A stretch of DNA of 32,000 bases, from NCBI GenBank assembly GCA_023898645.1, contig CP060232.1:1080001-1112000 (forward strand). The letters run 5' to 3'. Under the pieces are notes generated by a model. That model did not search any database and had not been told where the DNA came from. It worked only from the letters and a program-made list of their open reading frames with translations. The stretch is from Candidatus Saccharimonadota bacterium. GTDB taxonomy: Bacteria > Patescibacteriota > Saccharimonadia > Saccharimonadales > Saccharimonadaceae. The translations under genes were made by a program, and so were the position numbers. Positions 2,116 through 32,000 of the stretch are shown here, piece after piece; within the stretch, counting starts at the first letter, position 1, and each line of letters opens with the position of its first letter.

Positions 2116-2147
2116 AGTTCTTCCTTTTTTGTGTTTATTTTTATGTC

Positions 2148-4067
2148 TTATTTTGGCTTCTTTGCCGCACCATGGAGTACAGACGAACTAGGCGCCTCAC
2201 TGGGGCCGCTTGTATGTAGCTGGCTTGAAGTCGTACCCGCTACACGATTTGCATTTGGTGCGTTCAACGGACTCGTAATAGTCTCAGTTCTCGTTACGCC
2301 ATTCGGGCTGATTGCAGTCGACGTGCTTTTCACAGGAGCAGGCACCGTCTCAAGATTATCGACAGGTAATGGATGCACGGCAGGCGGACCCGCCTCAACC
2401 CCCTTACTAATTAACGGTGGCGGAGGTGGCGGAGGCGGTGGCGTCACTTCAGGTGGCGGAGGTGGCGGTGGCGTCACTTCAGGTGGCGGAGGTGGCGGTG
2501 GCGTCACTTCAGGTGGCGGAGGTGGCGGTGGCGTCACTTCAGGTGGCGGAGGTGGCGGTGGCGTCACTTCAGGCGGTGGCGCTTGAGGTGGTGGTGACGA
2601 AGGCGGTGCTACTTCCGGTGGAGGCGCAACTTGCGGAGAATAGTGCACAGGCGGAGCATTATAAACTGGTACATACGTACTTCGTGGAGCGACTGGTGCC
2701 GGCGCATAATGCGGATGCGGAACCTGAGTTGCAATTTGGTTACAACCGACTTCTACGATAATCGTCTTGCCACCAACGTGCCACTGCACAGCTTTGACAC
2801 CACTATAATTTACTTCGTTGTCGTAGAATACTTGCCCTTTATGCGTACCAAAGATAATGGCGTTGTTCATTTGGTTACTGCCCCACGAAGAATATCCAGG
2901 ATCCAACGTCACATGGTCGCCAAGCGAACCATTGTTCATGGCGTCAACTAATTCATGCGTAACTTTGAAGCGGACATCCGGATGAGACTGTAGGTAATCA
3001 GCGAATTCATTTACCTTAGTATTGTAATCGTTGAGCGTCATTATATTACGCAACGCCTCTGGGCTAGGTTTTACAGGAGCGCCGCCCATACCAAGCTCAG
3101 ACAAGTAAGCCGCAGTCATATGAGGATCGCTACGGAACATATCTTCAATATTTTTTAATGCCGCACCTTTATCACCATTCAAAAGTGCCAAATTTGCAGC
3201 ATCAAAATCATTAATATGGTTCTTGTTCGGTAGCATTGCAGTGCTCTGACTGTTGAAGTATTGATCAATGATTGATTTTTCTGGTGCCTTACCTGGCAAA
3301 GGGACTCCTGAGCCATTCCCTGGACGATTATTCACGTCAACGCCGGATCCACCAAACAAATGAGGAGCTACTTCTCGATACGCCACATACGCTCCAACAG
3401 CCGCAGCGCCCAGGCCAACCAATTTGGCTATAGATTTACGTCGTTCGTGCTTATCGTACTTCTCAAGTTTTTTTTCTATTTCTTCGTCGCTAAAACCCTT
3501 ATCTACAAGATCCTGTTCAAAGCGTGATCGTTTTTGCCAACGCTTTTCAGACTTCTTTTCACGCCATTCGGACAATTTACCCATGCCCATCATTACACGT
3601 GCGCTTGAATTCAACTTTACATGCTCGGACTTGCTTTCGGAATTTTCAGATGATTCCTCGCTTTTATTAAAAATATTTATCACTCGTTCACGAAGACTGT
3701 CGTCTTCATTTATGATAGAGCCCATATTTTTTTGCTTCATTACAGCTATAACATTCCAGATAGCCTCGGCATTATTACCACGACCACATATTCGATCCCA
3801 CATCTTTTCGGGTATTGCATCGACGGCATTGGCTCCAATGGCCTTGTCGAATATATGGCTTATAATCTCTTCGCGGTCTTCGTTTTCATACTCCTTTATT
3901 TCCTCAGGAGTTAAATACTTGGCAAACTCCATAACAGTCGTCTGCTCCGACTCTGGTGACGAGACATTTTGACTCTCAACTACATCAGGAGAATCCTGAT
4001 TATAATCCTCATGCCGCTTACCCTCTGGTACGCTGTCGTGTGATTGTGACGGCTCACCTTCGCTCAT
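2148..4067 (-). CDS. Bitopic membrane protein with an acidic N-terminal region, one TM segment, an extracellular domain and a C-terminal proline-rich decapeptide repeat
   Basis: 639 aa. The TM segment is LVGLGAAAVGAYVAY. Five PPPPPPPEVT-type repeats lie near the C-terminus. I recognise no family. Confidence 0.65.
   Translation of the reverse strand: MSEGEPSQSHDSVPEGKRHEDYNQDSPDVVESQNVSSPESEQTTVMEFAKYLTPEEIKEYENEDREEIISHIFDKAIGANAVDAIPEKMWDRICGRGNNAEAIWNVIAVMKQKNMGSIINEDDSLRERVINIFNKSEESSENSESKSEHVKLNSSARVMMGMGKLSEWREKKSEKRWQKRSRFEQDLVDKGFSDEEIEKKLEKYDKHERRKSIAKLVGLGAAAVGAYVAYREVAPHLFGGSGVDVNNRPGNGSGVPLPGKAPEKSIIDQYFNSQSTAMLPNKNHINDFDAANLALLNGDKGAALKNIEDMFRSDPHMTAAYLSELGMGGAPVKPSPEALRNIMTLNDYNTKVNEFADYLQSHPDVRFKVTHELVDAMNNGSLGDHVTLDPGYSSWGSNQMNNAIIFGTHKGQVFYDNEVNYSGVKAVQWHVGGKTIIVEVGCNQIATQVPHPHYAPAPVAPRSTYVPVYNAPPVHYSPQVAPPPEVAPPSSPPPQAPPPEVTPPPPPPPEVTPPPPPPPEVTPPPPPPPEVTPPPPPPPEVTPPPPPPPPPLISKGVEAGPPAVHPLPVDNLETVPAPVKSTSTAISPNGVTRTETITSPLNAPNANRVAGTTSSQLHTSGPSEAPSSSVLHGAAKKPK
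2416..2580. repeat. 30-bp tandem repeat: 4 perfect copies at 2451-2570 plus one variant copy, in frame within the CDS
   Basis: The unit AGGTGGCGGAGGTGGCGGTGGCGTCACTTC occurs at 2451, 2481, 2511 and 2541 with no mismatch. It encodes PPPPPPPEVT on the minus strand. Confidence 0.95.
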
Positions 4068-10184: not shown

Positions 10185-11225
10185 ATGAATATACGCTTTG
10201 CTGCTAATGGCGAAATTGCCTCATGGGACTCCAAGGTTCTTTCTAATCCCGACGGCGGAAATGTATTCCAAAGTGAAGAATTCGCAGATCAAAAAAAGTT
10301 ATCTGGCTGGGAACCACGATTTATCTTCGCAGATGAAACCGCTATAACCGTACTCGAAAAGAGCGTGTTTGGCCTAGGAAAATTATGGTACATACCCAAG
10401 GGCCCGGGAGTTTCTAGCGTAGAACAACTTGGCGACATACTACCCATGCTGAACGAGTTTGCCAACGAAAACGGCGTTTTCGCCATCAAGATTGAGCCTG
10501 AACTTATAAAGACAAGTGAAACCATGGAAGCCCTCGAAAAACTTGGGCTGACGCCCACCTCACCAATACAACCCAACTTTTCGACAGTGCTTATTGATAT
10601 TTCACCAGATCCTAACGAAATCATCGCAAATCTCAACCAAACAAGTCGTCATGCCATGCGACGCGCTGAACGCGATGGTGTAAAAGTAAATGCTGTTGAA
10701 TCCGACAATGTGAATTGTAAGCTGTTTTATGACCTACTCTCTGATACAGCTGCGAACTCATTCAACATCCGATCCTATGACTATTACTACAAATTTTGGA
10801 AGCGTTTTGCTGATGCCGGCCTAGGACAGCTATTTTTCACCTACTACAACGATAAACTAGTGGCAGGTGCGTTCGCTATGGTTTTCGGCGAAAAAAGCAT
10901 TTATAAAGACGGCGCCAGTGTCCGGGAGAAAACTGCATATGGTGCAAGCCATTTATTACAGTTACACGTTATGCAGTGGGCAAAACTACAGGGTTCAAAG
11001 ATGCACGATCTTGGCGGCTCACCACCAAGCGATCAAATCGGCAATAAAGATCACCCCCACTACGGCATAGGTGTATTTAAAACGAGCTTCAATAAACAAG
11101 TTACCGACTATGTTGGAGCCTTTGACTTGGTTGTTAAACCCACAAAGTACCGATGGTGGAAACAGTTTGGCGAACGAACCGTGCAGCGCCTGTGGTGGCG
11201 AAAGCATCAAGAAAGCTGGTATTAA
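10185..11225 (+). CDS. FemAB-family peptidoglycan peptide-bridge aminoacyltransferase (FemX-like), copy 1
   Basis: 346 aa. The N-terminus resembles FemX (W-D-x-F... VFQSEEFADQKKLSGWEP), and the acyltransferase-fold length and layout are typical of PF02388. TATACT-6 nt-ATG lies upstream. Confidence 0.8.
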   Translation: MNIRFAANGEIASWDSKVLSNPDGGNVFQSEEFADQKKLSGWEPRFIFADETAITVLEKSVFGLGKLWYIPKGPGVSSVEQLGDILPMLNEFANENGVFAIKIEPELIKTSETMEALEKLGLTPTSPIQPNFSTVLIDISPDPNEIIANLNQTSRHAMRRAERDGVKVNAVESDNVNCKLFYDLLSDTAANSFNIRSYDYYYKFWKRFADAGLGQLFFTYYNDKLVAGAFAMVFGEKSIYKDGASVREKTAYGASHLLQLHVMQWAKLQGSKMHDLGGSPPSDQIGNKDHPHYGIGVFKTSFNKQVTDYVGAFDLVVKPTKYRWWKQFGERTVQRLWWRKHQESWY

Positions 11226-12511
11226 GACTCTCCTATTAGCTCTCGGACAACGTCAGCATCGTTCCAAGGCATACGTTTACCCTCTATAATTCGAAATTTT
11301 TCGTGCCCCATACCGGTTATTAACACCATGTCACCCTTTTTAGCCACGGCAAGCGCCTTTTTGATGGCATCACGACGATCAGCAATTTCTGTCGTTTTTG
11401 CGATCCCTTTTGCTTTTTCTATTCCAGCCATAATATCTTGTCGGATGGCATCAGGATTTTCGTTATAGCTCTCTTCGTCGGTCAAAATTATACGATCAGC
11501 CAACCTTGAAGCAATTTCACCCATAATCGGTCGTTTAGTTTTATCACGATCACCACATGCGCCAAAAACGAGTACGACACGATTTTTAGTTATCTCTTTG
11601 GAAGCAACCAAAAACTTTTCGAGAGCATCGGGTGTATGAGCATAGTCCACTATCACGTCGTACTCTTTGCCTGTCTCAACTCGCTCAAATCGGCCCGGTA
11701 CGCCATCAAGATTAGCGACGCCCTCAATGATGTCATTTAGCCCTACGCCAAGCAAATAAGCCGCTGCAGAGGCAGCAGTCATGTTGTATACGTTAAACTC
11801 ACCAGGTAGTGCTGTGGCTAGCTCCAGCTTTGTCTGATGGTCAATAACGATTGTTGCTTCACTGCCCTTGCGAAACAGTTTGGTACGCTCTATCTTCGCT
11901 TCGGCATCATCATGCTTTCCGTAGGTAATCTTTTGAGCTGCAGCTTGAGCTTTATTAAAATAATCAAACCACTCATCATCACGATTTAAAACAATAAACT
12001 CTGGTTCATTCATGAAAAGTTTCGCTTTAGCCGCAGCATAATTTTCCATCGTACCGTGATAATCCAGATGATCCTGTGTCAGATTCGTCATGATAGCCAT
12101 GTGAATTGGAACGCCATCTAGTTTATGCTGATCAAGAGCGTGGCTAGTAATTTCAAGTAGCGTGTAGTCTACCTTTGCGCGTTTAGCGTCGCGAAAGAAT
12201 CGTTGCATTTGAGCGGTCGAAGCCACAGTTGCATTAAGATCGTTTATTTTGCGATTATCAGCGATTTCAATTACCGCTGTTGTAAACATTGCTGTTTTAT
12301 AGCCAGCTTCTTTAAGAATTTCGTTGATGTAGTTCAACGTTGTTGTTTTGCCATTTGTCCCTGTAATACCGATGACTTTCAGTTTTTTAGACGGATTACG
12401 GTATCGCGTACGAACTAATCTGACTCGGCCCTTACGATACGTACTCTCAAGATGTTTTACGGCGCCTTTCGGTAATGCCTTTCGTGCCCCCTTTACGAGT
12501 AATTGCTTCAT
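11222..12511 (-). CDS. murE: Mur ligase, MurE-type (UDP-MurNAc-L-Ala-D-Glu:diamino acid ligase) with a very short N-terminal domain
   Basis: P-loop GITGTNGKTTT at about aa 49, and a DYAHTPDALEKFL motif characteristic of MurE. I cannot find a DNPR (meso-DAP-specifying) motif; the corresponding region reads TDEESYNENP. Confidence 0.8.
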   Translation of the reverse strand: MKQLLVKGARKALPKGAVKHLESTYRKGRVRLVRTRYRNPSKKLKVIGITGTNGKTTTLNYINEILKEAGYKTAMFTTAVIEIADNRKINDLNATVASTAQMQRFFRDAKRAKVDYTLLEITSHALDQHKLDGVPIHMAIMTNLTQDHLDYHGTMENYAAAKAKLFMNEPEFIVLNRDDEWFDYFNKAQAAAQKITYGKHDDAEAKIERTKLFRKGSEATIVIDHQTKLELATALPGEFNVYNMTAASAAAYLLGVGLNDIIEGVANLDGVPGRFERVETGKEYDVIVDYAHTPDALEKFLVASKEITKNRVVLVFGACGDRDKTKRPIMGEIASRLADRIILTDEESYNENPDAIRQDIMAGIEKAKGIAKTTEIADRRDAIKKALAVAKKGDMVLITGMGHEKFRIIEGKRMPWNDADVVRELIGES

Positions 12512-12554
12512 GCAACCAGTGTAGCATCTTTACAGGCATGGTACAGTAGTAAGA

Positions 12555-13715
12555 GTGAAAATATTAGGCATAGAAACCAGTTGTGACGAAACTGCGGCGG
12601 CGGTAGTAGAAAATGGTCACATTTTACTAAGTAACGTCATTCAGACGCAGATTGATATACACGTACAGTACGGCGGGGTCGTGCCTGAAGTGGCGGCACG
12701 TAGCCACATAGAGGTCGTCAATCCTGTCATAAATCGGGCACTATCAGATGCAAACTGCACATGGGACGACATTGATGCTATAGCAGTCACCTATGCACCG
12801 GGTCTTATCGGCTCCCTACTCGTCGGCACACTTGCTGCACGAACGCTCGCTATCATCCACGACAAACCGTTGTATGCAATACATCATGTTGAGGCTCATG
12901 TTTACGCAAACTTCCTTACAGAACAGGGGCGAACACCAAATCATTCACCTGACGAACTTGTCCCTCTGGCGCAGTCCGGTGCGACAGGAGCTACGGGCGG
13001 AACAATCACTCAGACCGAGCTAACTTTGCCATCAAAGCAGCCTGATTTCCCCATATTGGCACTGATTGTTAGTGGTGGTCATACACAGCTTGTAATGTTC
13101 CGTGACCATGGTGACTTTGAATTACTGGGTCAAACACAAGATGATGCGGTCGGAGAAGCATTCGACAAAGTCGCTAAAATTATCGGACTCCCCTATCCTG
13201 GCGGGCCCTCTATAGCTAAAGCAGCACTTAGCGGAGATCCCCATAAGTATTCGCTACCTAAGGCCAAGCTACAAAACACATACGACTTTAGCTTTTCAGG
13301 CCTTAAGACAGCCCTTCTAAGGTCCGTTCAGCATGAAACCGGTCATGATTACACGTTTCCTTCACATGCACTTCACATGCTCTTAGACGATGCCATGCGA
13401 GCAGATTTTGCTGCCAGCTTCCAGCAAATTGCCGTTGAGACGTTGGTTGATAAGACCGAACGGGCATTTAATGACCACTCCCCTGCCAGTGTTGTCATAG
13501 CAGGCGGTGTCGCCGCAAACCAGGAACTCCGCCGCCAACTGCAAGAACGATTACCGTTAAAAATTGAATACGCCCCCATGCAGGTTTGTACTGATAATGG
13601 CGCCATGATCGCAACACTCGCCTACTACTATTCACAGACTATGCCCGCGGCTGATCCCTTCGACTTAGAGGTAATACCAAGTCTTTCAATGTCTAAAACT
13701 GCCTGGGCAAATTAA
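12555..13715 (+). CDS. tsaD: tRNA N6-adenosine threonylcarbamoyltransferase TsaD
   Basis: MKILGIETSCDETAAAVV, HHVEAHV metal site, VSGGHTQL, GGVAANQELR. GTG start. About 40 aa are inserted relative to typical TsaD, between the His motif and SGGHT. Confidence 0.92.
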   Translation: MKILGIETSCDETAAAVVENGHILLSNVIQTQIDIHVQYGGVVPEVAARSHIEVVNPVINRALSDANCTWDDIDAIAVTYAPGLIGSLLVGTLAARTLAIIHDKPLYAIHHVEAHVYANFLTEQGRTPNHSPDELVPLAQSGATGATGGTITQTELTLPSKQPDFPILALIVSGGHTQLVMFRDHGDFELLGQTQDDAVGEAFDKVAKIIGLPYPGGPSIAKAALSGDPHKYSLPKAKLQNTYDFSFSGLKTALLRSVQHETGHDYTFPSHALHMLLDDAMRADFAASFQQIAVETLVDKTERAFNDHSPASVVIAGGVAANQELRRQLQERLPLKIEYAPMQVCTDNGAMIATLAYYYSQTMPAADPFDLEVIPSLSMSKTAWAN

Positions 13716-13765
13716 ATAGGCCGCCTCGTGTTTAGAGGCGACCTTAGTCAACGTAGTTAGAACCC

Positions 13766-14065
13766 TTAGCTCATATCCCACGCTTCGACGTATAGCATCT
13801 CGTCTTGGGTTATGTCATTAGTATTAACGAATTTACATTCCCCATGGATTTCTAGGGGTAAAATGGCACTCGCTAAAATCTCGTAAGAAACCGGATATCC
13901 ACTTTTACACAGTGCCGAACCGTGCCCATCTCTTACTGCACGATCAAATTGTTGCGTTCCTCTGATACAGTGTTTACCCCAGGAGTTGCTCCATCTGGCA
14001 ACGATTGTCGTCCTGTCTGCGCGGAAAACCGTGATTTCAAATCCCAACGCCATAATAGCTCTCAA
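13766..14065 (-). CDS. Hypothetical small protein (weak call)
   Basis: 99-aa ORF with a TTG start. An internal ATG at 14053 has a GAGAG SD-like box. No motif recognised. Confidence 0.3.
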   Translation of the reverse strand: MRAIMALGFEITVFRADRTTIVARWSNSWGKHCIRGTQQFDRAVRDGHGSALCKSGYPVSYEILASAILPLEIHGECKFVNTNDITQDEMLYVEAWDMS

Positions 14066-14141
14066 TTCTATTGTCGAAGTACTGGTAAACCTCTGTTTAC
14101 AGTAGAAATACTTTACTATGTATTTTTGGTTTTTGCAAATC

Positions 14142-15125
14142 TTATCGCTTTAGCGCACGGACTACTTTTTTACCATAAGGTAATAGTGTGTTCCACATTA
14201 CATACAGAGGTGAGAGCGGCTTATCATATGTCCCTACGAGCGTATCCTCGTGATCTGCAAAGCCACGTTTGAAATTGCTCACCCCGTCACTAACTAATCC
14301 GTTCATGTCATAACGCTCCACACCCCACTCTTTCATCTTGCATATCGCATGCCACTTGAGTGCATAGTTAGCGCGTAATTCCTGACCATCGTCATTCATG
14401 CCGCCATAAAGTTCAAAGGCCGTATGAGCACTGATAGCAAGCCACAAAAATGCGATAGGCCATCCGTTCCGATATGCCGCAAACACCGGCGAAGCGTCAC
14501 CAAGATTTTCAAATACATCGTAATAATATTGGTCGTCATGAAGCGCAAAACCCGCACGCTCAGCTGTCAGTCGGTAAATCTGCATACACTTTTCAAGCTC
14601 TTCTCTATCTTTAACTTGGCGTAACTCAACACCTTCCTCGCCACCCGACTTACGAATATATTGTCGTGTTTTTTTATTCATCGGAGCCAACAATTCGTCC
14701 TCGGACATACTGAGGTCAAGAATTAATGTTTGTGGTATCAATATCGTGTTGCTACTTTTACGCCACCCTTTTAATAATGCGGGAAGTTCAGACCAATCCG
14801 GTTCAATCGTCAGCACCACTGCCCCGTATTGAGAACGGGCGTGATTTGTAAGTGCCCCTAGTACATCCCCTACTCCACTACCAGAGACAACAGGGCCCCT
14901 GGGTATGTAGGCAACAGAGTTAAATGGCCAAGGAAGTCTCCTTCGTAATACTTGCGCCGCCCCTACAATATGTTCGTCCATATCATAGGCAAACAATCGC
15001 TCAACTTTCCAGCCATGCGCAGCCTTTGTTTCTCCCCAACCCCAGAGCTGCAGTGGATGACCGTCATTTTCTAATACGAATTCATCCCACTCTTCTCTGT
15101 TTTCACACACTTTCAAAGAAATCAT
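14142..15125 (-). CDS. FemAB-family peptidoglycan peptide-bridge aminoacyltransferase, copy 2
   Basis: MISLKVCENREEWDEFVLENDGHPLQLWGWGETKAAHGW matches the usual FemX N-terminus. I chose the start at 15125 because TATAAT lies 6 nt upstream; the ORF itself is open to 15209. Confidence 0.8.
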   Translation of the reverse strand: MISLKVCENREEWDEFVLENDGHPLQLWGWGETKAAHGWKVERLFAYDMDEHIVGAAQVLRRRLPWPFNSVAYIPRGPVVSGSGVGDVLGALTNHARSQYGAVVLTIEPDWSELPALLKGWRKSSNTILIPQTLILDLSMSEDELLAPMNKKTRQYIRKSGGEEGVELRQVKDREELEKCMQIYRLTAERAGFALHDDQYYYDVFENLGDASPVFAAYRNGWPIAFLWLAISAHTAFELYGGMNDDGQELRANYALKWHAICKMKEWGVERYDMNGLVSDGVSNFKRGFADHEDTLVGTYDKPLSPLYVMWNTLLPYGKKVVRALKR

Positions 15126-15295
15126 GCTTGTATTATACATGTTCTTTCGGTGTGGTATAATTGATGTTGAAAATAAGTTCGGGATGTGGCGCACTAACAT
15201 AAATTTCACGTGAAATGTTGAAAGACAGATTATCTTTGCACGTGAAAATTGTTACGCTTGAGCACCCCTTAAACAAACCGGAGTTAGTAACCTTC

Positions 15296-19485: not shown

Positions 19486-19573
19486 GGAGAGGTGCAGGAG
19501 TGGTTGAACTGGCCGCTCTCGAAAAGCGGTATGGGGCAACTCATCGAGGGTTCGAATCCCTCTCTCTCCGCCA
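19486..19573 (+). tRNA. tRNA-Ser (anticodon CGA), class II with a long variable arm, CCA encoded
   Basis: Acceptor GGAGAGG/TCTCTCC, anticodon stem CCGCT/AGCGG with loop CTCGAAA, T-arm GAGGG-TTCGAAT-CCCTC, then GCCA. A long hairpin terminator lies at 19575-19611. Confidence 0.9.
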
Positions 19574-20332: not shown

Positions 20333-20409
20333 TGGTACACCCGATACGATTCGAACGTACGACCTTTGGCTCCGCAAGCCAACGCTCTATCCAGCTGAGC
20401 TACGGGTGC
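20333..20409 (-). tRNA. tRNA-Arg (anticodon GCG), CCA encoded
   Basis: GCACCCG-TA-GCTC-AGCTGGATA-GAGC-G-TTGGC-TTGCGGA-GCCAA-AGGTC-GTACG-TTCGAAT-CGTAT-CGGGTGT-ACCA. Confidence 0.9.
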
Positions 20410-24092: not shown

Positions 24093-24121
24093 TTGACTTT
24101 ATGCTTATTTATTGGTATAGT
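24093..24121 (+). promoter_or_regulatory. Sigma-70 promoter placing the TSS at the start codon of pilin paralog P1 (leaderless)
   Basis: TTGACT-17 nt-TATAGT-6 nt-ATG(24128). Confidence 0.65.
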
Positions 24122-24127
24122 ATTAAT

Positions 24128-24700: not shown

Positions 24701-24788
<88 letters not shown>

Positions 24789-24830
24789 TTGTTAAAATGT
24801 GCTTCAGCAATAATAGCAGATTTACCCCTG

Positions 24831-25499
24831 TTAGTCGAGAGTTTGACGACTAATTGAGGCAACCCAAACCTTACCAGCACCAGCATCAAGTAAAGTCTGG
24901 GCTGCGTATTTCACGGTCGCCCCAGTTGTAATGACATCATCTATAAGTAGATATGTTGCATTTGGATCTAACTTTTTACGGCAGACAAATGCAGACTTTG
25001 CTTGTGACACACGCTCCCGCACTCCCATGCCGCGCTGTGTTGTATTTGTAGCACGACTCAGCGACAAATCGACAGACAGCTTTCGTAAGCCACTAAACTT
25101 TCGCGCTACTAATAGCATGTGGTCGTAACCCCTTTGGCGAATATGAGAACCAACTGTAGGTACGGGAACAATAATTGTATTTTTCGGTAATTCAGGCAAA
25201 TGGGAATGAAGTAGGTCAGCGAGCGGGCCATGTGCTGCTCGCGTGTTACTAAACTTGAAGTCATTTATCAGACTTTCAAGATGATCACGACGGTCGGCGA
25301 CACACCAGGCGCGCTCATATGGCACACGACATACTCCACATAAACCACTTGCTGGCGCCAGTTGCTTGCCACAGCCCACACACGCAGAGAAAGGTTCGCT
25401 TATGATGTCATATTTACAATTATCACATAGCATGGTGCCAATTATTCCGCATCCGGAACAGTGGTGGGGAGCGATAATTGATAGTAGTTGGTCAATCAT
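24831..25499 (-). CDS. comF: ComF-family competence protein (phosphoribosyltransferase domain with N-terminal Cys-rich zinc-ribbon-like region)
   Basis: CSGC...CDNC and CVGC...CGVC pairs, plus the PRTase motif YLLIDDVITTGATV. Confidence 0.85.
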   Translation of the reverse strand: MIDQLLSIIAPHHCSGCGIIGTMLCDNCKYDIISEPFSACVGCGKQLAPASGLCGVCRVPYERAWCVADRRDHLESLINDFKFSNTRAAHGPLADLLHSHLPELPKNTIIVPVPTVGSHIRQRGYDHMLLVARKFSGLRKLSVDLSLSRATNTTQRGMGVRERVSQAKSAFVCRKKLDPNATYLLIDDVITTGATVKYAAQTLLDAGAGKVWVASISRQTLD

Positions 25500-25604
25500 T
25501 GTGATTTTTACGTTTTGACGGCTTGTCCGGTTGATTATATCACCGCTACTGGTTATACTGTAGGGGACAAGTTGTCAAGAGCCTAGAGAAAGTGGAGGAT
25601 ATTT

Positions 25605-26072
25605 ATGGCCCGCAAACAAAATACCAATGACGATCTATTGATCGAAGACGAATTGGCCGCCGCATTCCTGAATGACGACGATCTTTCAAGTAACGCCGAT
25701 GATGGCGGTGTCGTCATGCATGATGACGAACAGCTTGAAGACGATTTTCCAGGACAGTTGGCAGTCGATGTATACGAAACCGAGGATAAGCTGGTTGTTA
25801 AAGCCCGCACAGCCGGTGTAAACAAAGATGAGCTAGACGTCAGTATATCTGACGGCATCCTAACAGTCAGCGGTACGCTGAGCAGTGGTGATGACGCCGA
25901 TGTTAATAACTGGCACATTCAAGAATGCTACTGGGGCGAGTTTAGTCGTACACTAGCACTTCCTGTTGCCGTTAAGGAAGATGAAGTAGAGGCCGTCTTA
26001 AAGGATGGTGTTCTAACCATTACATTTAGCAAGGTTAAGCAAGAACACGCTAAGAAAATTCAGGTTCTGTAA
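25605..26072 (+). CDS. Hsp20/alpha-crystallin-family small heat-shock protein
   Basis: The alpha-crystallin domain runs from LAVDVYETEDKLVVKARTAGVNKDELDVSISDGILTVSG to FSRTLALPVAVKEDEVEAVLKDGVLTITFSK. A GGAGG SD lies 8 nt upstream. Confidence 0.9.
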   Translation: MARKQNTNDDLLIEDELAAAFLNDDDLSSNADDGGVVMHDDEQLEDDFPGQLAVDVYETEDKLVVKARTAGVNKDELDVSISDGILTVSGTLSSGDDADVNNWHIQECYWGEFSRTLALPVAVKEDEVEAVLKDGVLTITFSKVKQEHAKKIQVL

Positions 26073-26087
26073 AACTACAGTCCAATC

Positions 26088-26119
26088 AAAAAACTCCGCG
26101 ATAATCCGCGGAGTTTTTT
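26088..26119. terminator. Bidirectional rho-independent terminator between hsp20 and the pilin operon
   Basis: A 13-bp stem, AAAAAACTCCGCG / CGCGGAGTTTTTT, with a 6-nt loop. Confidence 0.8.
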
Positions 26120-26133
26120 GATTAGCAGCTTAA

Positions 26134-26553
26134 TTACTGGCCGCTAGTGAAACTTGAGACAACAAAGTTGACTACAGCGTAGGCGAGAATAGCAACGACC
26201 ACACCGACAATAGCATAAAGAATCGTATTTTTCGCATTCTGCACAGCCGTACTGTCGCCGCCAGATACAACGTAACGAATACCGCCGATAATAAGCATGA
26301 TCACACTAATTGCGCCAATGAGGAACAATAGCACGTTGGTAATGGTACGGAATATACCACCCTGGCCACCTGTACCAAAGAGAGTAGACGCGTCACCCTG
26401 CTGGTCCTTGCCCTGTGCAGCTCCTGCGCCGTCACTTAGTCCTTGGTTGAATGATGCGTGCACGGGAACAGGTTGCGCGAACAGACCAAAGCCCAATACC
26501 AATGCCGGTACGACAAGCGCCGCCGACAGAAGTTGTTTGATTTTACTTTTCAT
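26134..26553 (-). CDS. TrbC/VirB2-like pilin-family protein, paralog P2 (closest paralog of P1)
   Basis: Signal peptide MKSKIKQLLSAALVVPALVLGFGLFAQPVPVHA. The core NVLLFLIGAISVIMLIIGGIRYVVSGGDSTAVQNAKNTILYAIVGVVVAILAYAVVNFV is present. The ORF is open to 26568, but the second ATG has the better AAAGG SD. Confidence 0.8.
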   Translation of the reverse strand: MKSKIKQLLSAALVVPALVLGFGLFAQPVPVHASFNQGLSDGAGAAQGKDQQGDASTLFGTGGQGGIFRTITNVLLFLIGAISVIMLIIGGIRYVVSGGDSTAVQNAKNTILYAIVGVVVAILAYAVVNFVVSSFTSGQ

Positions 26554-26625
26554 GTATGAACCTTTCATTTTGATTACTTTACTACTTTTATACCAGATGA
26601 CGGGAGTTTTGTTAAGTGCTAACCA

Positions 26626-27006
26626 TTAACTTTTAAACGCACCGAGAACGAAGTTGACGATGGCGTACGCTAAGATAGCGACAACTAAACCAATAACCGC
26701 ATACAGCACAACGTCCTTTGCTGATTTCACTGCTTGCGCGTCACCGTTACTCGTCGCGTAACGAATACCACCGATGATAATCATTATGACCGCAACAGCA
26801 CCCAAGAGAAACAGGAGTACGTTCACGACTGTTTTAATTTTATCTTGAAGATCTTGCGTACCTGTCTGAGTACCGCCAACAGACGTAACTCCGCCTTGTA
26901 TGCTATCAATTGGGCTTTGGGCTAAAACAGTTGAAGGCAACAGTGGTGCTGTAGCCAATCCAACTGTTGTCATAATGCCGAGAAGTAGTGTACGTAGTTT
27001 ATTCAT
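26626..27006 (-). CDS. TrbC/VirB2-like pilin-family protein, paralog P3
   Basis: Signal peptide plus core NVLLFLLGAVAVIMIIIGGIRYATSNGDAQAVKSAKDVVLYAVIGLVVAILAYAIVNFV. A TAGGAG SD is present. Confidence 0.8.
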   Translation of the reverse strand: MNKLRTLLLGIMTTVGLATAPLLPSTVLAQSPIDSIQGGVTSVGGTQTGTQDLQDKIKTVVNVLLFLLGAVAVIMIIIGGIRYATSNGDAQAVKSAKDVVLYAVIGLVVAILAYAIVNFVLGAFKS

Positions 27007-27019
27007 ATGGTTTCTCCTA

Positions 27020-27436
27020 TTAGTTTCCTTTCAGTCGTGCCAGTACGAAGTTGACAATTGCATACGCCATGATTGCAACGACGAGGCCTATAACAGCATA
27101 CAACACGGTGTCTTTGGCAGATTTAATCTGTTGTGAATCACCATTACTTGTGGTGTATCTGATACCCCCTATGATAATCATGATCACAGCAACTATACCT
27201 AGCACGAATAAAATCATGTTGATAATGTTTGTCATAATAGAGGTGAAGCTGTCGCCAGTTGCGCCACAAATCTGACTCTGGCCAGCGCTAGAGGAGGCTC
27301 CGCCACCGGTAGTAGCACCACCAGCACCGCCACCAGGGCAATTCTGAAACACATTAATAGCCATAGCTGGCACTGGCATAAAACTAGTAAAAATAAGACT
27401 GAGACTAATGAGTAATGGTGATAGATATTTTTTCAT
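27020..27436 (-). CDS. TrbC/VirB2-like pilin-family protein, paralog P4 (Gly-rich loop bounded by 2 Cys)
   Basis: Signal peptide, NCPGGGAGGATTGGGASSSAGQSQIC, then core NMILFVLGIVAVIMIIIGGIRYTTSNGDSQQIKSAKDTVLYAVIGLVVAIMAYAIVNFV. The SD is AAGGAGGA. Confidence 0.82.
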   Translation of the reverse strand: MKKYLSPLLISLSLIFTSFMPVPAMAINVFQNCPGGGAGGATTGGGASSSAGQSQICGATGDSFTSIMTNIINMILFVLGIVAVIMIIIGGIRYTTSNGDSQQIKSAKDTVLYAVIGLVVAIMAYAIVNFVLARLKGN

Positions 27437-27446
27437 ACGTCCTCCT

Positions 27447-27743
27447 TTATTTTGCGACTTGCTGCAATATGAATTGTGTTATACCGGCCGCCATGATGAC
27501 CACAATTAAACCAACGACAGCATAGGTGATAGTGTTCTTTGCTGCCTGGATCTGACTACTGTCACCGTTGGCACCTACATAGCGAACACCTCCGATGATA
27601 ATAGCAAGTACCGCAACAATGCCTGCAATGAAATAAACGACGCCCAGTAAGTTACCAACCGTAGTACCTGTAATACTAGTAGGGGCACCCTGAAGGTTCA
27701 AATCTTCTTTTGAAATCTTAATTGTGTTGTTTGAAGTTGCCAT
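27447..27743 (-). CDS. TrbC/VirB2-like pilin-family protein, paralog P5 (no N-terminal signal peptide)
   Basis: 98 aa with a hydrophilic N-terminus (MATSNNTIKISKEDLNLQGAP). The core is GVVYFIAGIVAVLAIIIGGVRYVGANGDSSQIQAAKNTITYAVVGLIVVIMAAGITQF. Its start overlaps the P6 stop (TAATG). Confidence 0.75.
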   Translation of the reverse strand: MATSNNTIKISKEDLNLQGAPTSITGTTVGNLLGVVYFIAGIVAVLAIIIGGVRYVGANGDSSQIQAAKNTITYAVVGLIVVIMAAGITQFILQQVAK

Positions 27744-28210
27744 TATTTGATACTCCCAGCAATAAATTGAACAATGGCAATCGCCATAATTGAAATAACC
27801 AGACCAATGATAGCATTTTGGATGGTTTTGCGAGCAGCAACAGTGCCGCTACTGTTGTCACCCTGTGTCATATATTTAAACCCTCCCCATATAATGAATA
27901 TGAGTGATGCGTAACCAACGACGTAAAGTAACATATCTACAATGTTCATGGCGATAATCGTCAGCCATGTGCCAAACCTTTTACCAGTGTCGCCACTACC
28001 AACCTCATTGGGTGATTTTATACTTCCGTCACTTTTACATAGTCCATCGTACCAATGGGGGAAAATAGTGATACTTCCGCCACACGGATTAGAGCCGCCC
28101 GCAGAACTTGCGACGGTAGGCGCCGCATTAACGTATGACACCGGTAGTAGAGTAAATGCCGCAAGACTTATGAAAGTAATAGCAATTTTATATCTTATAT
28201 TTCGTAACAT
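27743..28210 (-). CDS. TrbC/VirB2-like pilin-family protein, divergent paralog P6 (2 Cys)
   Basis: Signal peptide, PCGGSITIFPHWYDGLC, then core DMLLYVVGYASLIFIIWGGFKYMTQGDNSSGTVAARKTIQNAIIGLVISIMAIAIVQF. Confidence 0.7.
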   Translation of the reverse strand: MLRNIRYKIAITFISLAAFTLLPVSYVNAAPTVASSAGGSNPCGGSITIFPHWYDGLCKSDGSIKSPNEVGSGDTGKRFGTWLTIIAMNIVDMLLYVVGYASLIFIIWGGFKYMTQGDNSSGTVAARKTIQNAIIGLVISIMAIAIVQFIAGSIK

Positions 28211-28217
28211 GTCGCAT

Positions 28218-28586
28218 CTATCCTATCACGCCACCAGGTACCAGCCAATTGATAATTGCAATGGTAAAACCATAAAGTAACAGACCAATGACAATATTTC
28301 GAATGATTGTTTTTGACTGATCTAGCTGGGATTGATTGTCGCGAGCAGACGCATAGAGAATTGCAGCATACGCCAAACCGCCAGTCGCCACCACTCCGAT
28401 GAGTATAGTTAGTACGTTTGTCGCTATTTTTATCAAAGCACCAATTGTACCTATACCAGTTTTATCGCTACAGGAAATCAATTGAGTTTTAGTAGTACCA
28501 CATGAACCTGCAGCGTATACAGGTGCAGCACTAACACCAAGCAGGACGGCAAAAAGCGCAATGGTGATTTTTATTTTTTTCATCAT
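28218..28586 (-). CDS. Pilin-like two-helix protein, subfamily B, paralog P7 (2 Cys)
   Basis: Signal peptide MMKKIKITIALFAVLLGVSAAPVYA, SCGTTKTQLISC, then NVLTILIGVVATGGLAYAAILYASARDNQSQLDQSKTIIRNIVIGLLLYGFTIAIINWLVPGGVIG. Confidence 0.7.
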   Translation of the reverse strand: MMKKIKITIALFAVLLGVSAAPVYAAGSCGTTKTQLISCSDKTGIGTIGALIKIATNVLTILIGVVATGGLAYAAILYASARDNQSQLDQSKTIIRNIVIGLLLYGFTIAIINWLVPGGVIG

Positions 28587-28595
28587 ATCTTGGCG

Positions 28596-29771
28596 CTATT
28601 TTATCACGCCTCCGGGTACTAGCCAATTGATGATAGCAATCATAAATCCATACACAAATAAACCTATCACGATATCGCGAATCCGCTTCCGTGCGTTTGA
28701 TACGGCTCCTTGGTCGTCTTGAGCCTGTGCGTACTGAATTGACTCCCACACTATACCGCCGACAGCCCCTATACCAACCAGTATCGAAAGTGCCTGCACG
28801 ACATACTGAAGCACCGTACTAAGTACCTCTCCGCCCCTAGCATTTGTGTCGCAGTTTATAAGATTAGTCTTTGCTTGGCCACATCCGCCTTTAACCGTAG
28901 AGGTTGTCGTACCTGGACCGCCAGCATCATTAACACTTGAACCGTCTGGGCAATTACCGTTTGCATCCGCCGTGCTGCCATCCTTACACTTAGGAGGCGT
29001 GGGTGGCGGCGGCAATGTACACTTATTATTTACCCATGTACCTCCGGCAGCAGAGCATTCATTTGGCGACTTCGCCTTCGTTGCCATACATTGCTGCAGT
29101 GTATCGTTGGTAATTTTTGTTCCCGTACCACCATTCTGGTCATAACACTCATTAATCGAGTTATCGATGTTTGTCTCGCACTGCTTTATCTGATTAACAT
29201 CACTAAGATTAGCGTTGTTACAGGCGCTCGCCACATAGCTATCTATGCGATCCTGTTTAGTCTTCGAGTTCGTATTGTAGTCTTGGCCCCCGACCGCTGC
29301 GTTACGCTGGTCAATGGCGTTGTCTATGCCACACCCAGACCCCAAGGTAACTAGCCACAAATCCGTTGGCCCTGAACCATCCGCACCAACATTACCGTTA
29401 TTACACGTTGTTGCAAACGCTAAAACATCTTTGTCATTACACGCGGTAGTGTCTATTTCATTGGTATAACAAGATACAAGTGCGTTCGAACAGTTACCCT
29501 CTTCAGTACCTGGTACATAAGAAATGGAGCTAAGGCCACCTATCTGTGCCGTGTTTGCACACTGCCTAACCGCAGCAAGACAGTCACTAGCCTTTATGTA
29601 TTGCGATACCGACTTGCAGTTACCGCTTACACATGTACCATCATCCTTTGAGCCAGAGCAAGACGCCTGCGCTGCGTCCTCATACACAAATGAAAAAGAA
29701 AATGATGCGGCGATTATACTGACAATTACGAGTAGTTTTTTCATGAACAATGTTATTCTCTTAATATTCAT
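28596..29771 (-). CDS. Cys-rich extracellular domain fused to a subfamily-B pilin-like C-terminal module (P8)
   Basis: 391 aa with a signal peptide. By my count ~20 Cys lie in the first ~310 aa. A PPPPTPP linker follows. The C-terminal ~95 aa (GCGQAKTNLINC...LSILVGIGAVGGIVWESIQYAQAQDDQGAVSNARKRIRDIVIGLFVYGFMIAIINWLVPGGVIK) are collinear with the whole mature part of P7. Confidence 0.75.
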   Translation of the reverse strand: MNIKRITLFMKKLLVIVSIIAASFSFSFVYEDAAQASCSGSKDDGTCVSGNCKSVSQYIKASDCLAAVRQCANTAQIGGLSSISYVPGTEEGNCSNALVSCYTNEIDTTACNDKDVLAFATTCNNGNVGADGSGPTDLWLVTLGSGCGIDNAIDQRNAAVGGQDYNTNSKTKQDRIDSYVASACNNANLSDVNQIKQCETNIDNSINECYDQNGGTGTKITNDTLQQCMATKAKSPNECSAAGGTWVNNKCTLPPPPTPPKCKDGSTADANGNCPDGSSVNDAGGPGTTTSTVKGGCGQAKTNLINCDTNARGGEVLSTVLQYVVQALSILVGIGAVGGIVWESIQYAQAQDDQGAVSNARKRIRDIVIGLFVYGFMIAIINWLVPGGVIK

Positions 29772-29865
29772 CCGTCACGCAGACTAAAATAGTTTATTCT
29801 TAAGATACATGTCTCTATAAAATTACACAAGCGAAATGAATTGAGATACCCTGATCATTTTGCAC

Positions 29866-30834
29866 CTATTCAGACGGTGCTTTAATAGAGAGTGTGTCGG
29901 GATAGGTGATTATCATTGTTGTAGTTGCGGGCACGCGGTCTTTATTGTCACTAATATTTTGAAGCTTCGTTATCTTACCAGATGTCTTATTAATCCAAAA
30001 CTTCACTTTCACAACACCAGATTGTTGATTGGCAGTCGCGTAGGATACGGTGCGACCAAGCAACTTATCTACCTGTAAACTGGCTGTCTTTAATCCGTTC
30101 TGATTCAGAATAATCGTATAAATATCTGTGTCGTTGCCTGAATTAACGCCATCAATTGTATAAACGTTATTTTCCTTCACGATGTCCAATAGGCTTTGAA
30201 CTCCGTCACCAAAATTGCCAGCAAATACATATCTTGGTATCGTGCTAGCAGTAAATCTTAGACCAAATGGGTCATATGCCGACACGTCCGCTTTTTTGCT
30301 CAGATCGCTTAGATGTTTCCATACACCCGTTTGGACTAAGCCGTTTGGAGCCATAGTGCCAGACACATTGTCAATCTGAGAAAACTTCGCGTAAAAATCT
30401 CCTGAATCTAAAGCGATTAATGACCCCGCAACTCTACCTTTATTAAGCCCATACGCATCGCTATCTTTAGATACGGAGACACTGTAATTAACGTCCACCC
30501 TAGGCGCACTCTTCATGGAGAAGTCTGATGTCGTCGTCATGTCTATCTTCAATGATTCACTACTGGCGGTTCCGTCTGCAACGATTTTGATATATTTTTC
30601 GTTCGCAAACTGTCTAATTGCTTGATAAAACTCTCTCTCCGGGACGCCTTGTACCCATACAAATACCGCCGCGCCAAGACCACCAACCAATAGAATTATG
30701 AGTGTGACTGTAAATATAAGCTTCAACTTTTTATTAGATTTCGACCGCTGGCCCGTTGCGGGATCAAGGTGTAAGTAATCAGGAACTTGATAGGGCATAC
30801 CGTTTTGATTTGAGTTTTGTTGATTTGGTTGCAT
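29866..30834 (-). CDS. Bitopic membrane protein (short Q/N-rich cytoplasmic tail, one TM, ~250-aa extracellular domain); first gene of the pilin operon; possible VirB8-like accessory
   Basis: The TM segment is LIFTVTLIILLVGGLGAAVFVWV. The VirB8 analogy rests only on topology and size. TGATATAAT lies 10 nt upstream of the ATG. Confidence 0.6.
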   Translation of the reverse strand: MQPNQQNSNQNGMPYQVPDYLHLDPATGQRSKSNKKLKLIFTVTLIILLVGGLGAAVFVWVQGVPEREFYQAIRQFANEKYIKIVADGTASSESLKIDMTTTSDFSMKSAPRVDVNYSVSVSKDSDAYGLNKGRVAGSLIALDSGDFYAKFSQIDNVSGTMAPNGLVQTGVWKHLSDLSKKADVSAYDPFGLRFTASTIPRYVFAGNFGDGVQSLLDIVKENNVYTIDGVNSGNDTDIYTIILNQNGLKTASLQVDKLLGRTVSYATANQQSGVVKVKFWINKTSGKITKLQNISDNKDRVPATTTMIITYPDTLSIKAPSE

Positions 30835-30915
30835 TGATAAACTAATTATATCACTTACGCTTATCTCTTGTTTTCATTGACACCATAACCAGTATGGCAG
30901 ATACTATAAGGGTAT

Positions 30916-32000
30916 ATGATGCAGCGCTTGTCGAACCAACTGTTTGGCGGATCGCGCACACTTCTTCGGCGTGGGGCGTTATTCATGTTTGCCGGTGTTA
31001 TGGCACTAGTCGTGACAGTATCGCCACTTGCAACACGTCCAGCATCAGCTCTTAGTTTTAGTCTGACCGGCAACAGTTGCGCCATCGAAACTGTAGGGTG
31101 GGTTGTTTGCCCCACGATGCGCTCTATTGCGCGCCTAGCTGACTATGGTTTTTCCTATATAAATCAAAGTTCTCTCGCTATAAACTATAAAATTTTCGAT
31201 AATTCGAGCAAAACCTTCAAGGCATGGGAAATCATGCGCAACATCGCCAACGGCATGTTTGTTGTAGTCTTTTTATACATTATATATGGCTACCTTATAG
31301 GTCGAACCGGCGGAAACTACACCATCAAGCGGCTACTACCACGCCTCGTAATCACAGCCATCGTCGTCAACACTTCGTATTTCCTAGGGGTTATTCTAGT
31401 TGATATATCAAATATTATCGGTGATTCCATATGGAGTATATTGAAAAATATTTACGGCAACGGCAGTCCTGTCATGCCAATTGGCGGAAGCGCCAATCCA
31501 CTTAGTGATGGCAATTTGACCAAAATGGCCGCGGCTGCCATGGGCAACACAGGAATGGTATGGGTACTAATGCCTCTAATTGCTGCCGTCACTATTACTG
31601 TCGCTATCATCAGCGCCGCCATGGTGATACTTGTCATCATGCGCGAAGCACTTGTTGCCGCACTTATTTTTGCGTCACCGTTATTAATAGTCCTTTATAT
31701 ATTGCCCAATGTTGAGCGTTTTTCCGGACAAGCAATACGACTATTCCTACAGCTCTTGTTGCTGTACCCAATTATTGCGCTACTGTTAGGAACTGGTCAA
31801 ATTGTCAGCCTGGCGGCCGGTAGCTGGAGTAATACATCTGCATTTTACGGCGGTGGAACTATGAGTATTGTGCCCGACCTTGTTGCTGCGGCAGCAGCCG
31901 TAGTACCCTTACTAGCCGTATGGTTCGTCTTTAAGAATATGTCGTCCATCATGAACGCTGCCGGTACACGATTAACTGCAAGCATTTCCGGTCGACGAGG
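30916..32000 (+). CDS. Polytopic membrane protein, VirB6/TrbL-like; 3'-truncated by the window edge
   Basis: This ORF is absent from the supplied track because it has no in-window stop. I translated it by hand, and the frame is open from ATG 30916 to 32000 (361 codons). It has a signal/TM segment (ALFMFAGVMALVVTVSPLATRPASA), the stretch FKAWEIMRNIANGMFVVVFLYIIYGYLIG, and at least 5 further hydrophobic helices. It is divergent from the pilin operon. Confidence 0.65.
   Translation, partial: MMQRLSNQLFGGSRTLLRRGALFMFAGVMALVVTVSPLATRPASALSFSLTGNSCAIETVGWVVCPTMRSIARLADYGFSYINQSSLAINYKIFDNSSKTFKAWEIMRNIANGMFVVVFLYIIYGYLIGRTGGNYTIKRLLPRLVITAIVVNTSYFLGVILVDISNIIGDSIWSILKNIYGNGSPVMPIGGSANPLSDGNLTKMAAAAMGNTGMVWVLMPLIAAVTITVAIISAAMVILVIMREALVAALIFASPLLIVLYILPNVERFSGQAIRLFLQLLLLYPIIALLLGTGQIVSLAAGSWSNTSAFYGGGTMSIVPDLVAAAAAVVPLLAVWFVFKNMSSIMNAAGTRLTASISGRR

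Follow-up and report, generated by a model that had tools for sequence, protein, structure and literature searches.

An ordered array of eight VirB2-like pilin genes in a probable chromosomal type IV secretion system of a Saccharibacterium

The window analysed here comprises 32,000 nucleotides of Candidatus Saccharimonadota bacterium (assembly GCA_023898645.1, contig CP060232.1, positions 1,080,001 to 1,112,000). Its right-hand part holds eight paralogous genes, P1 to P8, close to genes for a bitopic and a polytopic membrane protein. This region is probably the pilin module of a chromosomal type IV secretion system (T4SS) in a Saccharibacterium, by descent a monoderm conjugation system of the MPF-FATA type. 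Judged by profile comparisons, P1-P8 are pilins of the VirB2/TrbC superfamily, and each has a one-to-one counterpart at the corresponding place of arrays elsewhere. The original prediction for this locus, made from the DNA letters alone, had described eight such open reading frames (ORFs) in two subfamilies, and all eight appear in the ORF listing where it had placed them. This analysis demonstrated the proteins' place in the pilin family, the assignment of the polytopic gene to VirB6, the anatomy of the operon, and the synteny and positional orthology of the locus. The genes correspond to GenBank H6797_05830-05885 (USN96550-USN96559) on a 1.13-Mb contig of a metagenome-assembled genome, where all pilins are annotated as 'hypothetical protein'. 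The features are as follows.

P1: 24128..24550, plus strand; 140 amino acids (aa), a VirB2-like pilin that stands alone and inverted, its C-terminal tail rich in Gly (H6797_05830; PF18895 42.0 bits).
Terminator-like hairpin: 26082..26125, minus strand; 20-bp stem directly 3' of the P2 stop, the probable end of the pilin operon.
P2: 26134..26568, minus strand; 144 aa (139 aa if started at a second ATG, 26553); closes the array and is its most conserved paralog (PF18895 39.3 bits).
P3: 26626..27006, minus strand; 126 aa, with positional orthologs (PF18895 44.1 bits, TrbC 24.3 bits).
P4: 27020..27436, minus strand; 138 aa, two cysteines (PF18895 49.3 bits, TrbC PF04956 30.2 bits, NF045849 39.9 bits).
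P5: 27447..27743, minus strand; 98 aa, without a signal peptide (PF18895 43.4 bits).
P6: 27743..28210, minus strand; 155 aa, with a conserved FPxWYDGLC motif in the ectodomain (PF18895 31.5 bits).
P7: 28218..28586, minus strand; 122 aa, subfamily B, with a CGxxKTxLIxC loop and the C-terminus INWLVPGGVIG (PF18895 16.1 bits, below the cut-off).
P8: 28596..29771, minus strand; 391 aa, subfamily B (PF18895 32.0 bits over residues 315-384).
Bitopic membrane protein: 29866..30834, minus strand; 322 aa, N-terminus inside, one transmembrane helix at about residues 40-62 and an alpha/beta ectodomain; heads the operon.
Divergent promoter region: 30835..30915, no strand assigned; 81 bp between the bitopic and VirB6-like genes.
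VirB6/TrbL-like polytopic gene: 30916..32000 and on to about 32985, plus strand; 689 aa in full, of which the window holds residues 1-361 with the entire transmembrane domain.

Seven of the eight pilins (P1-P6 and P8) exceed the gathering score of the T4SS_pilin family PF18895 (26.6 bits), with E-values from 1e-7 to 5e-13 that lie far beyond chance. The TrbC family PF04956 (cut-off 27.9 bits) accepts P4; P3, P5 and P7 stay below the cut-off (24.3, 18.5 and 12.7 bits), and P1, P2, P6 and P8 gave no match. A hidden Markov model (HMM) built from the pilin family itself matches exactly these eight ORFs in the window and no others. Within NCBIfam, the pilins come closest to NF045849, the Mbov_0395 family of pilin-like conjugal transfer proteins in Mycoplasma integrated conjugative elements (ICEs). 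P4 falls just under its equivalog cut-off of 40 bits (E 2.5e-10), followed by P1 at 25.3 and P8 at 20.5 bits, scores that suggest relatives of this family and not members of it. The NF045849 protein comes from a monoderm system of the MPF-FATA type, as the window's pilins appear to, and its partner VirB4 family, NF045975, also matches the VirB4 of related loci described below; it differs in being single-copy and carried on a mobile element. According to PMC12102498 the monoderm MPF-FATA class is without VirB2-like proteins; given the near-threshold match of P4, such proteins may exist there after all.

Upon examination of the individual proteins, hydropathy heuristics place two hydrophobic helices at the C-terminus of all eight. 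A clear N-terminal hydrophobic segment with an AxA-like site is present in six; P3 falls below the hydropathy threshold and is plausible by eye. The signal peptide predicted for every paralog thus holds for seven of them, P3 being judged by eye, and fails for P5, which consists of the two hydrophobic helices only. Likewise, the polar loop GG(I/V/L)RY...GD...AK, proposed as a family-wide signature, is found in P1-P5 only: P6 reads GGFKY..GDN..AR, and P7 and P8 carry a degenerate Y..(D/N)(N/D)Q..(K/R). The division into two subfamilies and the INWLVPGGVI(G/K) C-termini of P7 and P8 are real in the sequence alignment; the P7 core is 45% identical to that of P8, and the CGxxKTxLIxC loop and INWLVPGGVI ending are common to both. 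P8 stands out by an ectodomain of about 270 aa with 20 cysteines, followed by a Pro-rich linker, that has no match in Pfam or among PDB sequences and is a candidate distal adhesin. (In contig L001, introduced below, P8 is listed as 382 aa, a difference in start-codon call only.)

The spacing of the genes and the signals around them divide the locus into three transcription units. From P8 to P3 the pilin genes are separated by 9 (P8-P7), 7 (P7-P6), -1 (P6-P5), 10 (P5-P4) and 13 bp (P4-P3), the negative value marking the start of P5, which overlaps the stop of P6 by 1 nt; P3 and P2 are 57 bp apart, or 72 bp counted from the second P2 ATG. These distances are as originally given. The bitopic gene lies 94 bp from P8. 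Shine-Dalgarno-like sites precede the internal pilin genes. On the minus strand, an extended -10 element (TGaTATAAT) ends 11 nt ahead of the bitopic ATG, and on the plus strand a promoter-like TTGACA-17-GATACT at 30877-30905 precedes the VirB6-like gene. A further promoter-like site stands ahead of P1 (24093-24121). The tight spacing, these signals and the terminator indicate that the genes from bitopic to P2 form one operon, that P1 is monocistronic, and that the VirB6-like gene belongs to a divergent unit. At P1, the bitopic gene and the VirB6-like gene, the ATG is preceded at 7-11 nt by the end of a -10-like box and lacks a Shine-Dalgarno sequence (24093-24127; 30835-30860, minus strand; 30877-30915), so that all three transcripts may be leaderless.

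Arrays in other Saccharibacteria bear on how the pilins relate to one another. In two relatives, L059 and L061, the layout is that of the window: a VirB6-like gene, a divergent bitopic gene, a large P8-type gene, small pilin genes, HSP20, ComF and an inverted P1-type gene. When 29 pilin cores from four genomes were clustered, they grouped by position in the array and not by genome. Ortholog core identity is highest for P2 (89-92% in L059 and L061, 73% in the distant L017), followed by P1 (85%), P3 (68%) and P4 (60-62%). For P5-P8 it ranges from 47 to 69%, the lowest value being that of P7 in L061, where the comparison is with the P8-type gene since the P7-type ORF of L061 lay outside the set. 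P7 orthologs are present in L059 and L017, and the P8 orthologs of L059 and L061 measure 364 and 439 aa. The same order extends over 41 Saccharibacterial loci with at least five pilin genes: a P7/P8-type gene, a P6-type gene of about 150 aa, a signal-less pilin of about 98 aa, P4/P3-types and then P2/P1-types, often with an inverted extra copy. The first gene is of the P7/P8-type and the second of the P6-type in 41 of 41 arrays, and the third encodes 88-104 aa in 34 of 41. This core order matches the six pilins of Southlakia epibionticum (PMC12857230).

One-to-one positional orthologs in a conserved order point at non-interchangeable subunits of a single heteromeric structure. In one lineage, represented by two independent assemblies, a single 270-aa ORF joins the P6-type and P5-type genes (L061 12867-13679; L062 9788-10600); taken with the 1-nt overlap here, the fusion hints, in Rosetta-stone fashion, that the two may act as a pair. 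The paralogs would thus be old, differentiated and probably interacting, which argues against a role in antigenic or host-range variation. Six contigs from six Sequence Read Archive (SRA) runs (L001-L006) are 100.000% identical to window positions 24749-32000, so no strain-level variation is visible in the array and the contigs are uninformative in this respect; the same clone recurs in several public data sets. With cores that are 85% identical, P1 might have arisen from P2 by recent duplication. This idea was rejected: P1 orthologs with P1-specific residues and tails hold the same inverted site in L059 and L061.

The polytopic gene across the divergent promoter region was predicted to be VirB6/TrbL-like, and five lines, each modest, agree on this identity. 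We read its full ORF in L001 (7850-9919, minus strand), a contig that shares 7,252 bp with the window at 100.000% identity; the part beyond the window adds a Gly-rich, low-complexity C-terminal extension of 330 aa. First, orthologs at 45-69% identity carry precomputed assignments to PF19590 (TrbL_3; P0001, P0004, P0007 and P0009) and, in P0009, also to PF04610; NCBI's name for this last ortholog is 'type IV secretion system protein', and the orthologs in L059 and L061 likewise have precomputed TrbL-family assignments. Second, PF04610 matches six of eight aligned sequences (the query fragment and seven orthologs) weakly, with a best E of 1.9e-4. Third, the protein is 31-35% identical to a TrbL_3 paralog about 7 kb downstream (E 1e-48 to 1e-53). 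Fourth, in a Foldseek search of 350,542 PDB chains, the five best matches of its AlphaFold2 model are all R388 TrwI/VirB6 (PDB 7O3V, 8RT9 and 8RTD; chain 7o3v_F was confirmed as 'TrwI protein'). Fifth, TrwI is the only protein touched when a profile of the transmembrane domain of the family is searched against PDB sequences (E 0.44). The window protein differs from TrwI in its low identity (15-17%, with a sequence-level E that is not significant), in the C-terminal extension and in being one of two paralogs.

The protein at the head of the pilin operon has no Pfam or NCBIfam match. An exhaustive profile search recovered 567 family representatives at 50% clustering, and an earlier view of the protein as nearly lineage-unique, based on three homologs from a word-index search, was dropped on this result. 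Among the loci compared, the gene occurs only directly upstream of P8-type genes, and in L059 and L061 always between the VirB6-like and P8-type genes. Its AlphaFold2 model, built from a four-sequence alignment, has a predicted local distance difference test (pLDDT) score of 53. With this low-confidence model, Foldseek returned LprF (4QA8; E 7.8e-5, template modelling (TM) score 0.48), then LolA and RseB entries. Two of 60 family members match PF17131 (LolA_like) weakly (best E 0.0019), and a family profile against PDB sequences gave transmembrane-helix noise only. A LolA/LprF-like fold is perhaps indicated, at low confidence and as a lead only.

Beyond the window, L001 continues with the remainder of the VirB6-like gene and then with genes for a 1095-aa protein, a protein of 222 aa, an esterase that looks secreted, a protein of 278 aa and, last, the second VirB6/TrbL_3 paralog. 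L009 and L010, which stand closest among the syntenic relatives (about 60-70% amino-acid identity), continue after this paralog with PrgI/VirB3, a TrsD-like gene, VirB4, a 400-aa protein, an M23 peptidase and a phage-tail-type lysozyme. Their PrgI/VirB3 matches PF12666 at 48.5 bits, and their VirB4 matches PF19044 at 100 bits and the CD1110 family NF045971 at 379 bits (cut-off 325), with NF045975 matching as well. By position in these relatives, VirB4 is expected about 13-15 kb past the window end. The T4SS ATPase that the original prediction allowed for beyond 32000 is thus supported by the syntenic relatives, and in this genome's own sequence it was not seen. Of the three checks that the original prediction had named, none speaks against it: the HMM similarity of the pilins and the VirB6/TrbL likeness of the polytopic gene bear it out directly, and the ATPase does so through relatives. 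Within the window, as stated originally, no VirB4 or VirD4 was found among the ORFs of at least 346 aa that were scanned, and a 639-aa ORF has no Walker A motif.

The downstream gene set of the relatives matches the published T4SS cluster of Candidatus Southlakia epibionticum ML1 (SEML1_0006-0019; PMC10633639, PMC12102498), which supports the T4SS reading. Both loci are chromosomal, with tandem divergent VirB2-like pilins beside VirB6-like genes; both lineages (ours as seen in its relatives) have PrgI/VirB3, TrsD and VirB4, then a peptidase and a lysozyme; and no relaxase or coupling protein lies close to either one, the published cluster being described as without a recognizable one of either kind (PMC10633639). 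S. epibionticum ML1 has six VirB2-like pilins (PMC12857230), and the six-gene core order of most Saccharibacteria is contained in the window's array. The window has eight, the additions being the 20-Cys P8, one P3/P4-type gene and the inverted P1. Its operon is also headed by the bitopic, possibly LolA-like gene, and about 7 kb of extra genes (the 1095-aa exoprotein, the esterase and others) part the two VirB6 paralogs of its lineage, which places the array about 15 kb from the expected VirB4.

Two of these extra genes deserve comment. The 1095-aa protein (L001 4563-7850, minus strand; about window 32985-36272) is joined to the VirB6-like gene by a stop/start overlap and has no match in Pfam, NCBIfam or PDB sequences. 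Proteins weakly similar to it follow VirB4 in L009 (13910-15112) and a TrbL gene in L013 (12146-14848), which suggests that a module of VirB6 plus a large exoprotein was duplicated. The esterase (L001 1665-3713, minus strand; about 7-9 kb past the window) matches PF20434 (BD-FAE) and PF07859 (Abhydrolase_3) and has Thr/Pro-rich and Gly/Ser-rich regions. Its place between two VirB6 paralogs is conserved in the lineage (also L009, L010, L059 and L061), and its possible roles are those of an effector or of an enzyme that harvests lipids.

In the scheme that we propose, seven of the pilins would be made with Sec signal peptides and inserted in the membrane as two-helix hairpins, and the signal-less P5 would be translationally coupled to P6. 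The two VirB6/TrbL paralogs, one of them the divergent gene, would form the platform at which VirB4 pulls pilins from the membrane and polymerises them. P1 and P2, the most conserved, would provide the bulk subunit; minor, initiating or tip roles would fall to P5-P8, among which the Cys-rich ectodomain of P8 is a candidate distal adhesin in place of the missing VirB5. By analogy with S. epibionticum, the machine would be needed for epibiotic growth, and it would probably exchange proteins or other molecules with the host and not conjugate DNA. In this scheme VirB4 in the present genome, filament formation, the subunit roles and the substrate are deduced and were not seen.

Several observations weigh against it. 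The VirB4 of this genome was not seen, as the available sequence ends inside the second VirB6 paralog, and a scan of metagenome contigs with a relative's VirB4 gave 80 loci, none of them conspecific (nucleotide identity to L001 no higher than 73%). When PDB sequences were searched with a profile of 22 pilin cores, the result was transmembrane noise and no significant match to a solved pilin (TrwL, 8S6H, E 0.39). Pfam matched the VirB6-like protein neither as the 361-aa window fragment nor in its complete 689-aa form, so that this assignment is drawn from orthologs, paralog and structure; the structural part is moderate in its model (pLDDT 67, predicted TM score (pTM) 0.60) and weak in its matches to TrwI (E 3.4e-3 to 0.12, probability 0.72-1.0, TM score 0.26-0.45). 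The division into major and minor subunits comes from conservation gradients and gene order alone. Finally, no filament has been reported for any Patescibacterial T4SS, a pilus being called a possibility in PMC12857230.

This last point bears on the question of whether an extended pilus is formed at all. The pilins might instead form a short envelope-spanning stalk or channel lining, or remain a membrane pool. Monoderm MPF-FATA systems are generally without a pilus (PMC12102498, PMC12857230), and none has been imaged to date. An epibiont that sits directly on its host has no need of a long filament, and related proteins with two transmembrane helices occur in ICEs of the wall-less Mycoplasma (the NF045849 match). 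However, VirB2 family membership, signal peptides and N-terminal segments that are variable and exposed are what one expects of polymerising pilins, and the 270-aa Cys-rich ectodomain of P8 suggests surface exposure. We regard a short structure as somewhat unlikely; it differs from the scheme above in polymer length alone.

A more elaborate version of the heteromeric reading can be drawn, in which P1/P2 would build the shaft, P6 and P5 an adaptor, and P7/P8 an initiating tip that replaces VirB5 and bears P8 as a disulfide-rich host adhesin. The LolA-like protein, anchored in the membrane and co-transcribed with the pilins, and the conserved esterase secreted from the same wider locus would handle lipids, loading pilins or harvesting host lipids by way of the machine for an organism unable to make fatty acids. 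With every part of it included, we hold this version to be distinctly unlikely; if true, it would describe a heteromeric filament of fixed composition, unlike any characterised pilus.

The original prediction had left a choice between a heteropolymeric and a variable filament, and the comparative data favour the former and disfavour the latter. The view that the paralogs are interchangeable and serve antigenic or host-range variation was raised for Patescibacteria in PMC12102498, and the same has been proposed for VirB2 arrays in Bartonella and Anaplasma. The stretches between signal peptide and first helix are indeed highly variable, of low complexity and divergent between orthologs, and paralog identity is low except between P1 and P2. 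Yet each paralog has its one-to-one ortholog elsewhere and clusters by position, with order and sizes kept in 41 loci. P5 is structurally distinct and in one lineage fused to P6, the six identical contigs show no switching, and no repeats or recombination cassettes were noticed. Moreover, the pilin series as a whole is reported to be essential in S. epibionticum (PMC10633639). We consider variation as the function of the array very improbable.

Comparison with the published arrays leads to the same point. Those of PMC12102498 resemble the window's in detection criteria, in belonging to Saccharimonadia, in tandem arrangement and in low paralog identity. Identity within an array is at most 54% there, and host-adaptive versatility was suggested; the P1 and P2 cores here reach 85%, P1 lying outside the tandem block. 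Against that suggestion, the positional orthology found here argues for fixed, specialised subunits. The Trw system of Bartonella and the T4SS of Anaplasma phagocytophilum also have several tandem VirB2 genes in a non-conjugative, host-interacting T4SS. By contrast with those arrays, thought to be recent amplifications for surface variation (cited in PMC12102498), the window's array appears old, ordered and structurally differentiated. The pilins of diderms (Agrobacterium VirB2, RP4 TrbC and R388 TrwL, of the VirB2/TrbC/TraA type) share with ours the signal peptide, the two-helix hairpin, the short polar loop and the association with VirB6 and VirB4. A diderm system usually combines a single pilin gene with a VirB5 tip protein and an outer-membrane core complex, whereas the window has eight paralogs, no VirB5, VirB7, VirB9 or VirB10, and a monoderm-type envelope.

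The CD1110-family VirB4 and the ICE-like pilin family point to an ancestry in conjugation, and one might suppose that the locus is itself an integrated conjugative element whose pilins serve DNA transfer. We find this scarcely credible. The flanks are housekeeping genes (GroEL, Mur ligase, FemAB, TsaD, ValRS and tRNAs), and the G+C content is uniform (0.43-0.46). No relaxase, integrase or coupling protein occurs among the scanned ORFs (those of at least 346 aa in the window, with ORFs below 240 aa in positions 1-21,000 unscanned, and the L001 genes, the esterase by precomputed Pfam assignment). These features mark the locus as chromosomal and not an obvious mobile element. The synteny from ComF and HSP20 through the pilins to VirB6 is, moreover, kept across distant Saccharibacteria, and relaxases are rare in Patescibacteria, being found in just 103 genomes (PMC12102498). 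The idea that the eight ORFs are unrelated two-helix proteins, such as holins or bacteriocin-immunity proteins that mimic the VirB2 topology, starts from the many spurious weak profile matches that short hydrophobic hairpins yield (transmembrane noise dominated the PDB search) and is effectively refuted by the seven pilins above the curated PF18895 threshold and one above that of TrbC, by physical and evolutionary linkage to VirB6, VirB3 and VirB4 genes in dozens of genomes, and by adjacent genes that include no lysis or bacteriocin genes.

Other features of the window touch the array only by proximity. Rfam found four tRNAs in the window and nothing else: tRNA-Ser genes with GCT and TGA anticodons bracket P1 (23902-23994 and 24701-24788), and the other two are a further tRNA-Ser (CGA), at 19486, and a tRNA-Arg, at 20333. 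At 811-4067 (minus strand), a 434-aa DUF11-domain protein is followed by the 639-aa ORF, which has an acidic N-terminus and no Pfam match; these may be surface proteins. Two FemAB-family genes around the Mur ligase and TsaD (10185-15209) may encode peptidoglycan cross-bridge enzymes. The public record is labelled 'Candidatus Nomurabacteria bacterium'. Among genomes with relatives of the downstream TrbL_3 protein, 52 of 52 species representatives are Saccharibacteria/Saccharimonadia, and so is every relative of a locus protein, so that this label looks wrong; the early guess of an epibiotic organism of the candidate phyla radiation was right.

The novelty that the original prediction implied for an eight-paralog pilin array does not hold, as the system has been in print since 2018, again in 2023 and in 2025. 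McLean 2018 described in Saccharibacteria an array of four to six VirB2-related signal-peptide proteins beside VirB4, VirB6 and PrgI (bioRxiv 10.1101/258137). Wang 2023 found the pilin series essential in S. epibionticum by transposon sequencing (PMC10633639), and Quinonero-Coronel 2025 used PF04956 and PF18895 to find 441 VirB2 arrays of 2-11 genes in 383 assemblies, especially of Saccharimonadia (PMC12102498). The topic was reviewed in December 2025 (PMC12857230). Because the system is already published, the locus is a clean, complete eight-gene example of it and not a new discovery. What we add is modest: positional orthology and fixed order, the coupling and fusion of P6 and P5, the P8 ectodomain, a possibly LolA-like leader gene and a near-threshold link to the pilin-like proteins of Mycoplasma ICEs.

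To our knowledge, the Saccharibacterial T4SS is the first found essential to its own carrier bacterium, and we know of no VirB2-like pilins in a monoderm-type system other than those of the Saccharibacterial array. For this family of machines, the comparison across genomes favours a heteromeric assembly over a system for variation, and it names particular subunits that are worth testing.

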